Below, piece after piece: positions 27,619 through 59,579 of a stretch of 64,000 nucleotides of DNA. Source of the stretch: an uncultured virus (IMG/VR IMGVR_UViG_3300017730_000004) (lineage: Duplodnaviria; Heunggongvirae; Uroviricota; Caudoviricetes); IMG/VR virus record IMGVR_UViG_3300017730_000004; one strand, given 5' to 3'. The translations under genes were made by a program, and so were the position numbers. Positions within the stretch are counted from its first letter, which is position 1. Every line of letters begins with the position of its first letter. The notes beneath the pieces were generated by a model. The model did no database searches. It was not told the origin of the DNA and worked only from the letters and a program-made list of their open reading frames with translations.

Positions 27619-29871
27619 ATGGCTGAGACCAACGCAGATATAAAGAATTTTACAGAAGGTTTAATTGGAAGCTTGAACAGGGTAACAACTGGTCTTGCTT
27701 TCAAGCAGTCTGCTGAAATAATTAAAGCAAACGAAAGAATGAAAGAGTCTCAAGAAAGACTCGCTCGTAGGCAAGAAACACATCAAGGAAAGGTCGAAGC
27801 ACAACAAGAAAAATTCGATAAGTCTCGTGAGAAGATTATGCAAAAACACGCAAATAATCAAACTCAACGAGACATAGAATTATACAAACTAGACAATAGA
27901 AGAAATGATGCAACTAAAGAATTGGTTGACGATTTTGATAAGTTTAAAAAATCATTAAGTGAAGGTAACGACTTAGAGAAAGACCACATCGAAAACCTTA
28001 AATCTCAAGGTAGTATGAATACTGGTATAGACGGAATGTCTTCTGGCATTGATGATATGGTTAAAGGTATTGAAGGTTTGACATTTGGTCTAGTAGACTT
28101 AAGTGGTAGTTCTAATAAACTAACTAATTTCTTTAAAGGGATTGTTAGTTTAGGTGTTGGTTTAATAAGTTTCTTAGGAAGTCTAGGTGAGACTGTTGTA
28201 CTATTAACAGACCACTTAAAAGTCTTTGATAGAAAAATAAAAATTACTAGAACAGGGGGAGCGCCAGGTACAGTACCTAGTGGTATCACTGGCATGGGTG
28301 AAGATTTTGTTGGCCCTGTTAACCCCAATGCAGCTACATCATCAGAAGATATTATTGAATCATCGGTTGTTGATTTTGCAACCCCATTAGGTAAGAAAGC
28401 AGGCAGTTTCTTTAAAGGCATCAAAGATGGAATCGGTGGTGTCCTTGATACAGTAAGTCCACAAAACATCAAAAAGCAATTTGATGTTGCAACCAAGACA
28501 TTTGCTAAAGGAGCAAGCATTGTTGCAAATGTAACACCTACTGAAAGTGAAGAACGAAGACCTCTCCAAGAAACATTGCCGGGCATGGAGAAATCACCCC
28601 AAGATAAATCAGCTGAGTTCCTATCTACATACAAAAGTGATTCTGTTCCAATAGAAGCAGCTGGTGCAATATCTGATATGTTAAATGGAATTAAAAATTC
28701 TCTTAGAAGTTCATTTTCGTTTGGTGATACAGACAAACAAGCAGAAGCTGGTGAGATGATGGAAGAAAATTTCTCACAGATGAAAGGTCATGCTGAAAAC
28801 TTTAGAGGCTTAGTGTTTGGTGAAGGTTCTATGTTTGCTAAAATTACTGGTGGATTTGGAGATGCATTAAATTTCTATGGTGAGAGTGTTAATAAGGTAG
28901 GCAATACGGTTATTGGATTTGGGAAATCAGTTGGCCAGTTCTTCAGTAGTGGAGAAAATATGAAAGCTGGGGTGGCGTCTTTCGCTGCATCTTCATGGTC
29001 ATTTCTTAAATCTGCATTAAAGTTTGTTCCTGCTGTATTAGGATTCGTTGTTGCAACCACTATGTTTGTGGGTTCAATGATTGTTGCATCCTTACCATTC
29101 ATTGCAATGGGATTATTAATTGCAGTTGGAGTTGCTTTACTCGTTGGAGCTGTAGTTGCAGTATTTAATAAGTTCCCTATCATAGGTGAGACTTTATCTA
29201 CAGTATTTGGTTTTGTATTTGATACCATTAGTGGTATAGTCAATGTTATTATGGATGTCTTCAGCAATATATGGGGAGCCATAACAGACATCTTCGGTGG
29301 ATTCATCGATATGTTTAGCGCTGCATTCAGTGGTGATTTTGGTGGTATTTTTGATGGTCTAATGAAGATAATAGGTGGAGTCTTTGATTTATTCTTAGCA
29401 CCATTTAGAGCAATCTTCGATGGTATAGCAGGATTTGTTAATTCACTATTACCCGATTGGGCAAAAGACATGTTAGGGGGTGATACTGCTTCTGCAGAAG
29501 AGAGTGGTCTCTACGATAAAAACAGAATAGGTAAATCTACTGTAGATGCATCTATGATATCTGGCGCTCCAACTAAAGACTTAATGGCCATTGTTTCACA
29601 CAATGATTTATCTGAAGAAGACATGGCACTAGTTAAGGCAGAACTTGATTCAAGGAATATAGGTCTTGAAGGTACTCCTATGACTGGTGAAGAATTAAAA
29701 GAACAAAGAGAAGCATCTAAAGCTGCAATGGATGGTGGAACACAAAACAACACTGCAGTTGCACAACAAAACACTAATAACAATGTAACTAATAATGCAT
29801 TCTCACAATCACCTAATCCTAGACCAACTGATTCTACAATTGGAAGAACTGCAGCTGTAAATCTAAATTAA
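27619..29871 (+). CDS. Tail tape measure protein (gp29-like)
   Basis: 750 aa; coiled coil, amphipathic G/F repeats, hydrophobic segments, C-terminal N-rich NNNVTNN; follows gp26/gp51. Confidence 0.7.
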   Translation: MAETNADIKNFTEGLIGSLNRVTTGLAFKQSAEIIKANERMKESQERLARRQETHQGKVEAQQEKFDKSREKIMQKHANNQTQRDIELYKLDNRRNDATKELVDDFDKFKKSLSEGNDLEKDHIENLKSQGSMNTGIDGMSSGIDDMVKGIEGLTFGLVDLSGSSNKLTNFFKGIVSLGVGLISFLGSLGETVVLLTDHLKVFDRKIKITRTGGAPGTVPSGITGMGEDFVGPVNPNAATSSEDIIESSVVDFATPLGKKAGSFFKGIKDGIGGVLDTVSPQNIKKQFDVATKTFAKGASIVANVTPTESEERRPLQETLPGMEKSPQDKSAEFLSTYKSDSVPIEAAGAISDMLNGIKNSLRSSFSFGDTDKQAEAGEMMEENFSQMKGHAENFRGLVFGEGSMFAKITGGFGDALNFYGESVNKVGNTVIGFGKSVGQFFSSGENMKAGVASFAASSWSFLKSALKFVPAVLGFVVATTMFVGSMIVASLPFIAMGLLIAVGVALLVGAVVAVFNKFPIIGETLSTVFGFVFDTISGIVNVIMDVFSNIWGAITDIFGGFIDMFSAAFSGDFGGIFDGLMKIIGGVFDLFLAPFRAIFDGIAGFVNSLLPDWAKDMLGGDTASAEESGLYDKNRIGKSTVDASMISGAPTKDLMAIVSHNDLSEEDMALVKAELDSRNIGLEGTPMTGEELKEQREASKAAMDGGTQNNTAVAQQNTNNNVTNNAFSQSPNPRPTDSTIGRTAAVNLN

Positions 29872-30084
29872 TTCAGGCCCTTTAAGCATATCTGCTTTAG
29901 TCATTGCCTTTCTGTTATATTTTGTTTTATCTTTTTGAACTTGAGTAAGTCCATGTGAAGGTGTAACCTTTCTAACCTTTACTTCAGTTTTTTTACCAAA
30001 GATAGTATCCCAGTTATCTGAGTATAATTTCTCGTTAGAATTCCTACGTTGTGAACCCTTGCCACCGTGCCATTGTTTTGCCAT
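29863..30084 (-). CDS. Small basic protein downstream of bS21
   Basis: 73 aa, K/R-rich: GGKGSQRR...NWDTIFGKK...VQKDKTKYNRK. Confidence 0.6.
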   Translation of the reverse strand: MAKQWHGGKGSQRRNSNEKLYSDNWDTIFGKKTEVKVRKVTPSHGLTQVQKDKTKYNRKAMTKADMLKGPELI

Positions 30085-30088
30085 GTCA

Positions 30089-30334
30089 TCAACCTAACGG
30101 CCCTCTAAATCCACGTCGTCCCATTGATGCTCTTTTTGCATCTAACTTCTTACGTCTCTTCAAGTCTTGGTTTCTTTGATTCCTAATTGTATTAGGTTTG
30201 ATGTGATACTTTCTATCACGACATTCTTGAACTATACCTGCTTTCTCACAATCCTTTTTGAATCTGCGAAGTAGTTGGTCGAACCCTTCTACGTTCCGAT
30301 TCTTTGGATTTATTTTAGGTGTTACACTAGGCAT
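30089..30334 (-). CDS. rpsU: 30S ribosomal protein bS21 (phage-encoded)
   Basis: MPSV...[32 protein letters not shown] aligns with proteobacterial [32 protein letters not shown]. Confidence 0.88.
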
Positions 30335-30349
30335 AATTATTCTCTAATA

Positions 30350-30512
30350 GATGTGAAGTCACCCCACGCTTTACAGCAACCCGTTCTTCACCGACCAATC
30401 CGCTATATGCTATTGACCTTTCCCTTACTGAGTACCCCCAATCATTTTCCACGGTCTCAGTGTGTAGTCGTCTTATTTTCAAGGACACATTTTGAATAAA
30501 CACGACTACCCC
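30350..30512 (-). ncRNA. Candidate four-hairpin structured RNA between gp32 and bS21
   Basis: Stems GUAGUCGU/ACGACUAC, ACUGAG/CUCAGU, GGUCAAU/AUUGGUC (G-U pairs on minus strand), GUGAAG/CUUCAC in a ~200-nt GC-richer gap. Confidence 0.6.
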
Positions 30513-30531
30513 ATTGTAAGAAACTCAACTA

Positions 30532-31431
30532 CTAACTATCAGCAGCCAGTTTCTTAAAGTAGTCCATCGCATCATCTTCTTCCACTTGGGGAGCAGATTC
30601 TGCTGATGCAACTACAGGTTCTTCTGCAACTGGAGACGTGTTAACATCTGACCATGGAAGTTCTTCCATATCATCTGCAACTGACTCAGCTGTAGAGTTA
30701 GTTACTGCACCTGTTAATCCAAGAACTCTATCGAGTTTCTCTTTTAACTCTTCGTAAGATTTAAACTCACTTGGTGCAATAATTCCACTTAAGCTATGTA
30801 GGTTGTTTACCACATCTACAAGCTTTTGCTCATCATCAAATAAAGGTGCTTGTGAATCGAACTCTGATTTATCATAGTTCCAGTATCCGTCAACTTTTCT
30901 GATTTTAATCTTGAAGTTGGCACCTTCGTCTCTGAGGTCAAAAGGATTGATTGCTTTCTCATCTTCAAATGCTGGTGAGATTGCTTCCTTGAGTGCTTCA
31001 AAGATTTTTTTACCATATCTGTACTTAAACACTTTACCTTCGTTAGCAGGATTTTTAGGGTCTGAGATAACAAGGATGTTAGACACATAATGTAAACGTC
31101 TTTTCTGTTTACGTGCTTGGTCTTTGTTTGCCTCAACACCAGTATTCCATAACTGAGTATTGTATTCAGACACAGGGTCTTGTTTATTAAGAGTCGTTAA
31201 AGACTTCTCAATATACCATCCACCTGGCCCTTGGAAACCGTGGTCGAAGTATGATACCCATGGCATCTCTTCACCCTCGGGGGTAGGTAAGAAACGAACT
31301 ACAGCGTAACCGTTACCACTCTTATCGAGTTCGGGTTTCCACATAGTGTCGTCTGAGTAGGATTTTTTTTCTCCGCCTGTTGGGGAAGCTGATTCCATTG
31401 CAGCTCTTAGTTTATCTAAACTACTTGACAT
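30532..31431 (-). CDS. gp32: Single-stranded DNA-binding protein gp32
   Basis: WKPELDKSGNGYAVVRFLP, HGFQGPGGWYIEKSLTT, acidic tail DAMDYFKKLA. Confidence 0.96.
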   Translation of the reverse strand: MSSSLDKLRAAMESASPTGGEKKSYSDDTMWKPELDKSGNGYAVVRFLPTPEGEEMPWVSYFDHGFQGPGGWYIEKSLTTLNKQDPVSEYNTQLWNTGVEANKDQARKQKRRLHYVSNILVISDPKNPANEGKVFKYRYGKKIFEALKEAISPAFEDEKAINPFDLRDEGANFKIKIRKVDGYWNYDKSEFDSQAPLFDDEQKLVDVVNNLHSLSGIIAPSEFKSYEELKEKLDRVLGLTGAVTNSTAESVADDMEELPWSDVNTSPVAEEPVVASAESAPQVEEDDAMDYFKKLAADS

Positions 31432-31479
31432 TGTATTCTCCTATTTTATTACAATTGTATCGCATTTTATCGCATATTA

Positions 31480-32211
31480 TCAAGATACTTCAGATGGGTG
31501 TCCCACCCCAAGTATCCACTTTTCACTATTTTCATAGTTAAGTTCATTATACTCTACTTTCACAAAACCTTCAAGAGGCTTTTTCCAATAGACATTAATG
31601 TTTTCATACTCCTTTAATAGAGCAAGAAACTGTTGTTGTTGAGTATGGAAGACTCTATCGTCTTCTGAATAATCAACCTTGTATTTATACAAGCCAGACT
31701 CAGCAAATATATTACTGGGGTCATTATGTTCAAGTGCATCGAATCCTATTAGACATATGTCTTTGTAACCGTTTTCGATTGCATATCCTAATGCACTCAT
31801 TCCACCAAATAGATTCTTAAGCTTAGGATTATTATACATAACTATGTTATTCCCATAGTCCCCGCTAATACCTATAAAGAAACATTCCTTTCCGTCGTAA
31901 CTTCCTTGGACTGAAAACTCCGTATCTCCGTCCTTCCTAATCTCATAGAAGTTATCATATTCACCAATACCCATCTTCATCATATCCCACATTTCAATCG
32001 GGACGGTCTCGAACTCGGCAAATGCAACTTTGTTTGTTTTATAGTATTCTTCGTCTACAATTTTTGCTTGAACTTCTATATCAATTGCAAATAGTAAGTC
32101 GGGTTTAACAATATTATTTGATACTGCATTAAAACCCCACCACTCTTTATCTTTGAATTCTTCCCAGTCTACATTCTTCTGACTAGGGCCATTCCCTATT
32201 AAGTAGAGCAT
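31480..32211 (-). CDS. Maf/DUF115/GT42-like (CMP-sugar transferase fold) protein
   Basis: YLIGNGPS, PDLLFAID, GMSALGYAIENGYKDICLIGFD. Confidence 0.5.
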   Translation of the reverse strand: MLYLIGNGPSQKNVDWEEFKDKEWWGFNAVSNNIVKPDLLFAIDIEVQAKIVDEEYYKTNKVAFAEFETVPIEMWDMMKMGIGEYDNFYEIRKDGDTEFSVQGSYDGKECFFIGISGDYGNNIVMYNNPKLKNLFGGMSALGYAIENGYKDICLIGFDALEHNDPSNIFAESGLYKYKVDYSEDDRVFHTQQQQFLALLKEYENINVYWKKPLEGFVKVEYNELNYENSEKWILGVGHPSEVS

Positions 32212-53959: not shown

Positions 53960-54035
53960 TGGTGGAGCTGACAGGGGTCGAACCTGCGACCTACTACGTG
54001 CAAGGCAGTCGCTCTCCCAACTGAGCTACAGCCCC
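53960..54035 (-). tRNA. tRNA-Ala(UGC)
   Basis: 76-nt cloverleaf GGGGCTG...CAGCTCC-A-CCA, G3:U70 pair, anticodon loop CTTGCAC, TTCGA T-loop. Confidence 0.97.
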
Positions 54036-59502: not shown

Positions 59503-59579
59503 TGGCGGGACTGATAGGAATCGAACCTATAACCTACTGCTTAGAAGGCAGTTGCTCTATCCGATTGAGCTACAACCCC
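59503..59579 (-). tRNA. tRNA-Arg(UCU)
   Basis: Cloverleaf GGGGTTG...CAGTCCC-G-CCA, anticodon loop CTTCTAA, TTCGA T-loop. Confidence 0.95.

Follow-up and report, generated by a model that had tools for sequence, protein, structure and literature searches.

A strongly conserved folded RNA directly behind gene 32 of uncultured marine T4-like phages

What occupies the space between a phage gene for a replication protein, gp32, and a phage-borne gene for ribosomal protein bS21, and does it belong to one of these neighbors or to neither? The question is raised by an uncultured member of the Caudoviricetes (IMG/VR record IMGVR_UViG_3300017730_000004), from which a stretch of 64,000 nucleotides, hereafter the window, was analyzed. 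All genes around the gap lie on the minus strand, in the order gp59-like helicase loader, 243-aa ORF, gp32, gap, bS21, and a 73-aa basic protein (Table 1). A preliminary description, made from the letters alone, had reported a gap of about 200 nt, richer in G+C than its surroundings and tiled by four hairpins, and had proposed a ribosomal-protein leader, an rRNA mimic, or an independent noncoding RNA (ncRNA). The gap separating the gp32 stop (30532) and the bS21 ATG (30334) is 197 nt long, and its G+C content does exceed that of the immediate flanks (0.42-0.45 over 30325-30549 vs 0.35-0.41 immediately beside), but the contrast is modest, with parts of gp32 reaching 0.49.

Table 1. Features of the gp32–bS21 region in the window, listed in minus-strand order
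Feature	Coordinates	Strand	Details
gp32 single-stranded-DNA-binding protein gene	30532..31431	-	Pfam gp32, E 1.5e-37; final codons form the 5' arm of P0
P0, hairpin around the gp32 stop codon	30517..30557	-	In the MFE fold; arm-swap duplex test; 5' arm 30557-30540, loop 30539-30535, 3' arm 30534-30517, beginning at the stop codon (30534-30532)
P1, hairpin, 8 bp, variable loop	30464..30509	-	30509-30502 with 30471-30464
P2, bulged A 30433	30427..30461	-	30461-30453 with 30436-30427
J2/3, single-stranded purine-rich joiner	30419..30426	-	GGG tract 2 at 30424-30422, invariant
P3, hairpin, 7 bp	30393..30418	-	30418-30412 with 30399-30393
P4, 6-bp outer stem plus 2 inner pairs	30353..30391	-	30391-30383 with 30362-30353
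A/U-rich tail, P4 to bS21 ATG	30335..30352	-	Fewer U in the window than in most relatives
Phage ribosomal protein bS21 gene	30089..30334	-	Pfam Ribosomal_S21, E 8.1e-13; PHROG 21469
Small basic protein, 73 aa, GGKGS..RR motif	29863..30084	-	PHROG 2701 (function unknown), weak match; Pfam search without match

The gap holds a folded RNA that is real and strongly conserved, the whole element extending over approximately 30353-30557. The four stems first described, P1 to P4, were recovered both by single-sequence folding and by RNAalifold on 100 relatives, and a fifth hairpin, P0, which the preliminary description had missed, reaches back into the coding sequence of gp32. The 216-nt element has a minimum free energy (MFE) of -64.9 kcal/mol (z = -3.69), a value equaled in none of 200 shuffles. 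At its other end, P4 closes 18 nt before the bS21 ATG, close to the 16 nt or so first estimated, and, as had also been remarked, the start codon has no strong Shine-Dalgarno (SD) sequence: AGGA, GGAG and GAGG are all absent from the stretch preceding it, whereas 28 of the 72 window ORFs of at least 100 aa do carry one of the three upstream.

Relatives of the element were collected from IMG/VR in steps, beginning with a bS21 protein search that yielded 44 loci. The RNA is present in all 44 loci of this bS21 subfamily, right upstream of bS21 in 40, where the stretches are visibly conserved with compensatory changes, and further upstream, behind an inserted gene, in the other four. Two pattern scans built from the conserved letters then gave 79 loci and, subsequently, at least 120 stretches; in all, the motif occurs in at least 244 sources, corresponding to at least 104 distinct 260-nt variants, 100 of which have full flanks and are referred to here as the main clade. 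A covariance model, R1 (113 positions, 27 pairs), finds a single copy in the window at 120.6 bits and a single copy in the nearest virus record, which served as a positive control. The carriers are uncultured marine T4-like (Kyanoviridae-like) phages related to pelagimyophages.

The comparison with homologous stretches, which the preliminary description had proposed, bears the fold out, as the element is conserved and covaries in related phages. For pair statistics we used 86 distinct P2-P4 cores and a structure written by hand from the RNAalifold result. Standard pairs fill 95.9% of 2,322 pair cells, a share that falls to 78.5% in 500 column shuffles and to 30-42% if the partners are displaced by 1-3 columns, and both-sided changes occur at 18 of the 27 pairs, in 381 cells. 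In the RNAalifold structure of the 100 variants, 23 of the 31 pairs in P1-P4 show compensatory changes. The P0 duplex was assessed by exchanging arms between variants: own arms reach a mean of -9.3 kcal/mol vs -5.6 for swapped arms, and the own combination is the better one in 91 of 100 variants. The suggestion that G-U pairs favor the minus strand also holds, with 155 G.U cells against 23 A.C cells, and the minus strand is therefore the folded one. When every pair of columns of the 86-core alignment was examined, no convincing covarying pair, and hence no additional pseudoknot, appeared outside the known helices. Coding potential was considered and rejected, 66 of 100 variants having no open frame across the element and lengths modulo 3 being spread 38/30/32.

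The individual helices are supported in different degrees. RNAalifold finds compensatory changes at all eight pairs of P1, in 13-51 sequences each; its loop is of the AUGUGUCC type in many variants, the window included, and in some variants only, its 5' strand can pair alternatively with the D-Y-F-K codons of gp32. P2 encloses an inner loop composed of GUGGA (30452-30448) and the unpaired GGG tract 1 (30439-30437), with five of nine pairs changed on both sides and 95.1% of cells paired. All seven pairs of P3 show both-sided changes (99.0% of cells paired), and its loop carries a conserved GCGG at the 3' side. In P4, six of eight pairs are changed on both sides (98.1% of cells paired), and GGG tracts 3 (30382-30380) and 4 (30365-30363) face each other unpaired below a tip hairpin (30377-30368) with a GUAA loop, whose helix displays one-sided changes only and is paired in 85.3% of cells. 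The tips of P1, P2 and P3 differ in length among variants, and in the alignment some relatives carry extra hairpins inserted at the P2 tip.

Loops and joiners, rather than the helices, hold the majority of the 33 columns that are invariant in 100 of 100 variants. This set comprises ACU at the base of P2, the GUGGA-type string and the facing unpaired GGG within P2, the joiner AGUA.GGG.AA between P2 and P3 (invariant in the 100 rows and in 86 of 86 cores), GCGG in the P3 loop, the two facing GGG of P4, and the GCU-GUAA-RGC tip of P4. GGG tract 1 is G in 85 of 86 cores, and tracts 3 and 4 are kept in 86 of 86. With 28.5% G and 13.4% C, the RNA is rich in G and poor in C, so that the GGG tracts have no conserved pyrimidine partners within it.

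The position of the RNA is fixed on one side and free on the other. The C-terminal coding tail of gp32 lies directly upstream in 100 of 100 variants, and all 51 IMG/VR loci with a gp32 at least 74% identical to that of the window carry the RNA, at 73-124 bits. Behind P4, on the other hand, bS21 begins after 16-57 nt in 67 of 100 variants, a 295-aa DNA methyltransferase (PHROG) begins after 11-18 nt in 20, a promoter-like site followed by bS21 is found in 12, and another, unidentified ORF follows in one. In the methylase group, bS21 comes after the methylase wherever the locus extends far enough. In the promoter group, P4 and a U run precede TTGACA or TAGACA, a spacer of 17-18 nt, and TATAAT or TATACT, a sigma-70-like arrangement lying 4-8 nt before the bS21 ATG; a transcript from this site would exclude the RNA and be nearly leaderless for bS21. 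A bS21 motif lies somewhere downstream in 92 of 100 variants, and the GGKGS..RR protein also accompanies the module, with its motif downstream in 68 of 100, a count taken over loci of which many end too early. In the main clade, gp32, the RNA and bS21 travel together, and a looser functional link to bS21 is possible.

Outside the main clade, R1 gave weak matches at six of 29 loci whose gp32 is 57-62% identical to that of the window (13.7-29.9 bits, E 2e-4 to 0.76), all of them directly behind gp32. Read by eye, the 3' half of these stretches keeps the order of elements, a purine-rich joiner being followed by a P3 whose loop is of the GCGG type and by a P4 in which two GGG tracts face each other, whereas the 5' half is unlike that of the main clade. 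A pattern derived from them located 76 loci with 51 distinct full-flank variants. The weak R1 scores, the same position, and the order of elements as read by eye make it probable that these distant subtypes are homologous to the main clade. All 51 carry TATAAATA, which we take to be the T4 late-promoter consensus, between the gp32 stop and the RNA, vs none of the 100 main-clade variants, and in none of the 51 does bS21 adjoin the RNA. Downstream of the 27 type-B variants no ORF starts within 160 nt, and of the 26 type-B loci with sufficient sequence, 21 have a convergent ORF that ends within 80 nt; in the 24 variants of type C, the GGKGS..RR protein comes directly after the RNA. The type-B structure is well supported in its own right: of its 42 predicted pairs, 20 show compensatory change, and 97.5% of cells are paired. 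Type C is poorly resolved by RNAalifold (17 pairs, three compensatory).

Beyond these groups, the place behind gp32 is occupied differently. Judged by gp32, the closest phages in culture are Pelagibacter phage Mosig and Methylophilales phage Melnitz, at about 55% protein identity; in both, bS21 lies at another place in the genome and closely abuts the upstream feature, leaving no room for a leader, and searches with R1 over the whole records gave no match in either phage, in the viral single-cell record AG-345-L05, or in cyanophage P-RSM1. Several more distant gp32 relatives have, as seen by eye, a G+C-rich inverted repeat (hairpin) and a T run behind gp32, and Melnitz and a few contigs carry a different conserved-looking element there. 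In cellular genomes, scans of one-genome-per-species contigs with two patterns, both of which require the main-clade core and would let distant cellular relatives escape, returned 0 and 22 matches, of which the model confirms only one, on a phage-like contig of 121 kb that was binned with a Sphingobacteriales MAG and has the same gene order.

The element matches no family in Rfam, the check on which the preliminary description had made its novelty depend. At the gathering threshold, Rfam 15 finds two tRNAs in the whole window, both elsewhere, and ARAGORN reports the same number and no more, likewise elsewhere, so a tRNA or tmRNA was discarded as a candidate. Searches with E up to 10 over 30200-30650, which included the rRNA/SSU, riboswitch and OLE models, returned no match, nor did searches with E up to 1 of 18 diverse family members. 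BLASTN of the RNA against 50,697 phage records gave only short matches at chance level (E >= 2), and full-text literature searches turned up, among the entries listed, no relevant report of a structured RNA downstream of gp32 or upstream of phage bS21. The available text of a pelagimyophage survey names S21 as a core gene and states that Riboswitch Scanner found no riboswitches (PMC7029224), and the bS21 peptides listed for HTVC008M in the accessible part of another study differ from the bS21 of the window (PMC6375957). A precedent is a catalogue of 8,495 candidate structured RNAs mined from the same source, the intergenic regions of IMG/VR; in the portion available it contains no model longer than 151 nt, and S21 is not entered in its supplementary files 3, 5 and 6, among them the table of models that lie at most 25 bp upstream of genes with a protein domain, but part of the present RNA may be among its unnamed DNAVirus_X models (PMC10690425).

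The borders of the RNA suggest how it may be made. After P4, 99 of 100 variants have 4-8 U in the first 10 nt; P4 is an interrupted stem, the window is U-poor here, and a scan of 29700-31700 for a simple terminator consensus found no site. Between gp32 and the RNA, the window's clade shows no conserved promoter box; a sigma-70 promoter of the window's own (a 9-of-12 match at 30542-30513) was set aside, its letters not being conserved in relatives. RNA-library contigs, which may hold DNA, bridge gp32 and the RNA (X3 record 26) as well as the RNA and bS21 (X1 record 1), both with no differences, and all three parts occur together in X18 record 17; assembled contigs of this kind cannot show ends, strand or level. 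Contig depth over gp32 plus the RNA differs about tenfold from that over bS21 in two runs and is flat in two others, and such depth cannot rank genes.

Taken together, we favor, with confidence that is limited but leans to the affirmative, a previously undescribed ncRNA family at the 3' end of the gp32 unit, putatively ending at P4 and its U-tract and acting through its G-rich loops, and not a leader specific to bS21. Among the three readings first offered, this corresponds to the independent ncRNA; the other two find no support, given the varied downstream gene in one case and the rarity of the rRNA-like string (3 of 86 cores) in the other. In the window's clade, the RNA would be made as the tail of the gp32 mRNA, because no conserved promoter box separates the two and P0 spans the stop codon; speculatively, the transcript could be processed at P0, or P0 could link folding to the translation of gp32. 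The late-promoter box of the distant subtypes would allow the RNA to be made additionally on its own. In all subtypes the RNA would end at P4 and the U-rich tract, terminating or attenuating transcription, and bS21, the methylase or the small basic protein would be reached by read-through or from a promoter of their own. The RNA may act in its own right, its invariant G-rich loops (four GGG, GUGGA, GCGG, and the GUAA tip) forming a partner-binding core; the partner is most likely a protein, with bS21 and the GGKGS..RR protein as first candidates.

Some observations speak against the ncRNA reading. In 87 of 100 main-clade variants the next gene begins 11-57 nt after P4 and is not preceded by a promoter-like site of its own, an arrangement that suits a cis-acting leader or attenuator too. 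The RNA-library contigs continue into bS21 in two runs, and in the window itself the tail is poor in U and the terminator scan empty.

Complex RNA folds conserved this strongly are usually riboswitches, ribozymes or ribonucleoprotein scaffolds. An attenuator or riboswitch-like element, in which a small molecule or protein bound by the conserved core would stabilize or destabilize P4 and, through P4 and its U-tract, set read-through from gp32 into the genes behind, is unlikely in our judgement but deserves serious consideration. Its build is aptamer-like, with invariant nucleotides in junctions and internal loops, covarying stems, and peripheral loops of variable length, and it could draw both on the U-rich tract behind P4 in 99 of 100 variants and on the closely following gene, free of an intervening promoter-like site, in 87. 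The genes behind it, however, have no common function (bS21, DNA methylase, small basic protein), the RNA is followed by a promoter-like site in 12 of the 100 main-clade variants, and no Rfam riboswitch model matches. Moreover, 27 of the 51 distant variants lack any ORF that begins within 160 nt downstream and so offer no evident target of regulation, yet the RNA is equally conserved there.

A natural assumption, an autoregulatory leader through which bS21 made in excess would bind the RNA and repress its own production, is quite improbable. It would account for the 67 of 100 variants in which bS21 begins 16-57 nt behind P4, for the RNA in all 44 loci of this bS21 subfamily, and for the bS21 motif downstream in 92 of 100, and bS21 can bind a non-ribosomal RNA, OLE, according to the available portion of a recent report (PMC12054373). 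Yet a leader should adjoin bS21 in all members, and the RNA is not adjacent to it in 33 of 100 main-clade variants, 12 of which have a separate promoter-like site, while bS21 stands beside the RNA in none of the 51 distant ones; Mosig and Melnitz, conversely, have a bS21 without a leader and without this RNA. Nor is there support for occlusion of the ribosome-binding site (RBS) or start codon. P4 ends 16-57 nt before the ATG, and an RBS-sequestering outer helix, formed by the segment behind the gp32 stop and the purine-rich stretch before the next ATG, was rejected since its true pairs are no better than swapped ones (-3.0 vs -3.2 kcal/mol; true better in 37 of 88). Mimicry of the rRNA site that bS21 binds finds no support at the level of sequence, the helix-16-like string being rare, the CCUCC of an anti-SD mimic occurring in 0 of 100 and 0 of 51 variants, and no SSU model matching; a three-dimensional mimic of bS21's rRNA binding site is possible.

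A bolder version of the ncRNA reading, which we regard as distinctly improbable, would make the RNA the scaffold of a phage ribonucleoprotein that acts on host translation. Here the four GGG tracts would form a G-quadruplex-like core joining P2 and P4, and the RNA would bind bS21 and/or the GGKGS..RR protein, or the 3' end of 16S rRNA, and retune initiation on phage messages. A core of this kind would be unusual for a natural RNA and, if this reading were true, some of the most abundant myoviruses of the ocean would possess a phage equivalent of the OLE-bS21 partnership.

It is also very unlikely that the RNA is a 3' UTR element centered on gp32, protecting the mRNA from 3' exonucleases or serving gp32 regulation, with no role in trans. 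Its constant place directly behind gp32, the pairing of P0 with gp32 codons and the stop codon, and the plain terminators or other structured elements at the same place in other clades would all agree with such a function. Against it, the 33 invariant loop and joiner nucleotides far exceed the need of a protective hairpin, the TATAAATA late-promoter box, which all 51 distant variants carry between gp32 and the RNA, would yield the RNA without gp32, and gp32 binds unstructured single strands and is not known to prefer folded RNA.

Mimicry of 16S rRNA helix 16 (h16), or of another rRNA site, is hardly credible: the window does resemble the h16 string, but the string opens with the 5' strand of P4, which covaries with its partner and exists in 15 versions, the window's being present in 28 of 86 cores, the full string is found in only 3 of 86, so that the likeness is not a conserved feature, no Rfam SSU model matches at E up to 10, and bS21 is, to our knowledge, not located at h16 in the ribosome.

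The RNA is widespread, with at least 100 distinct main-clade variants and 51 distant ones in IMG/VR. The new family is now represented by an alignment, a structure and a covariance model, and the assumption of a bS21 leader is probably wrong. Should the G-tract core or the bS21 partnership be real, it would bear on how phages reprogram host ribosomes.

Several known systems invite comparison. Small RNAs derived from 3' UTRs, or sharing a terminator with an mRNA, are a known class in bacteria and are typically seed-pairing. The phage RNA resembles them in lying directly behind a coding gene, in its putative end at a hairpin with a U-tract, and in its possible origin by release from the mRNA or from an internal promoter (TATAAATA, in 51 of 51 distant variants); unlike typical seed-pairing sRNAs, it is much larger, with five helices and 33 invariant nucleotides. 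With the autoregulatory leaders of ribosomal proteins it shares the placement of a structured RNA just upstream of a ribosomal-protein gene in 67 of 100 variants, but its position is fixed to gp32 and not to bS21, neither an RBS-hiding helix nor rRNA mimicry is supported, and it is absent in other phages with bS21.

OLE RNA, too, is a complex, conserved, non-ribosomal RNA linked with bS21, a link that in the phages is one of gene neighborhood only. As described in the accessible parts of two reports, OLE is about 600 nt long, belongs to Bacillota, and is bound by bS21 at a duplex that mimics the SD/anti-SD pairing and includes a CCUCCU strand (PMC12054373; bioRxiv 10.1101/2024.12.08.627333); in contrast, CCUCC is absent from all 100 main-clade and all 51 distant variants of the phage RNA. 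The translational operator of T4 gene 32, finally, is likewise a structured RNA on the transcription unit of a T4-like gene 32. That operator, as summarized in the available text of the catalogue, lies 5' of gene 32 and consists of a small pseudoknot and an unstructured tract (PMC10690425), whereas the element described here lies 3' of gp32 and is built of five hairpins.

Directly after the structured RNA that lies between gp32 and bS21, 12 of the 100 distinct main-clade variants (L047, L048, L069, L075, L124, L146, L152, L169, L171, L177, L178 and L181) carry a sigma-70-like promoter match of bS21's own, consisting of TTGACA or TAGACA, a spacer of 17-18 nt, and TATAAT or TATACT. The match ends 4-8 nt before the bS21 ATG, the gap being 6 nt in seven of the twelve, such that a bS21 message started from this promoter-like site would, judging from the sequence, be nearly leaderless. 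Such a message would be notable because bS21 is itself a protein linked to SD-dependent initiation.

The RNA and bS21 are separated in 20 of the 100 main-clade variants by a gene for a 295-aa protein of the PHROG DNA methyltransferase families. The phage-like contig L251 (121,087 bases) also presents the gene order gp59, gp32, RNA, methylase and bS21, and is included in a Sphingobacteriales MAG, a placement that is due to faulty binning or else hints at the host. In the window, SD-like cores precede 28 of the 72 ORFs.

Another gene often found beside the RNA encodes a small basic protein, 56-79 aa long, that carries a GGKGS..RR motif close to the N terminus and belongs to no Pfam family; the motif is present in 68 of the 100 main-clade loci. 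The 750-aa ORF convergent with the bS21 module is rich in glycine and hydrophobic residues and has no Pfam match.

Features in the window and in the relative contig L251
Feature	Sequence	Coordinates	Strand	Remark
Small basic protein gene	window	29863-30084	-	also after bS21 or RNA in relatives
750-aa ORF	window	27619-29871	+	convergent with bS21 module
tRNA-Ala(TGC) gene	window	53960-54035	-	
tRNA-Arg(TCT) gene	window	59503-59579	-	
DNA methyltransferase gene	L251	2620-3507		PHROG DNA methyltransferase families

Within the RNA, the 5' strand of hairpin P1 (window ~30509-30500) is complementary over 10-12 bp to the gp32 D-Y-F-K codons near 30570, making an alternative pairing between the two possible on sequence grounds. 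This complementarity occurs in the window and some relatives, and is missing where the P1 sequence differs.

The RNAs directly behind gp32 in L356-L431 (e.g., L360 and L366) and L327-L338 probably constitute a distant subfamily of the same element. All 51 distant variants have a TATAAATA box upstream of the RNA, which is followed by a convergent gene in 27 (type B) and immediately by the GGKGS..RR protein gene in 24 (type C). Just 3' of gp32, Melnitz (L002, 1984-2190) and some contigs (L340, L344 and L354) contain a different conserved-looking element, which ends in a strong terminator. The presence of structured RNA downstream of gp32 may be a wider theme.
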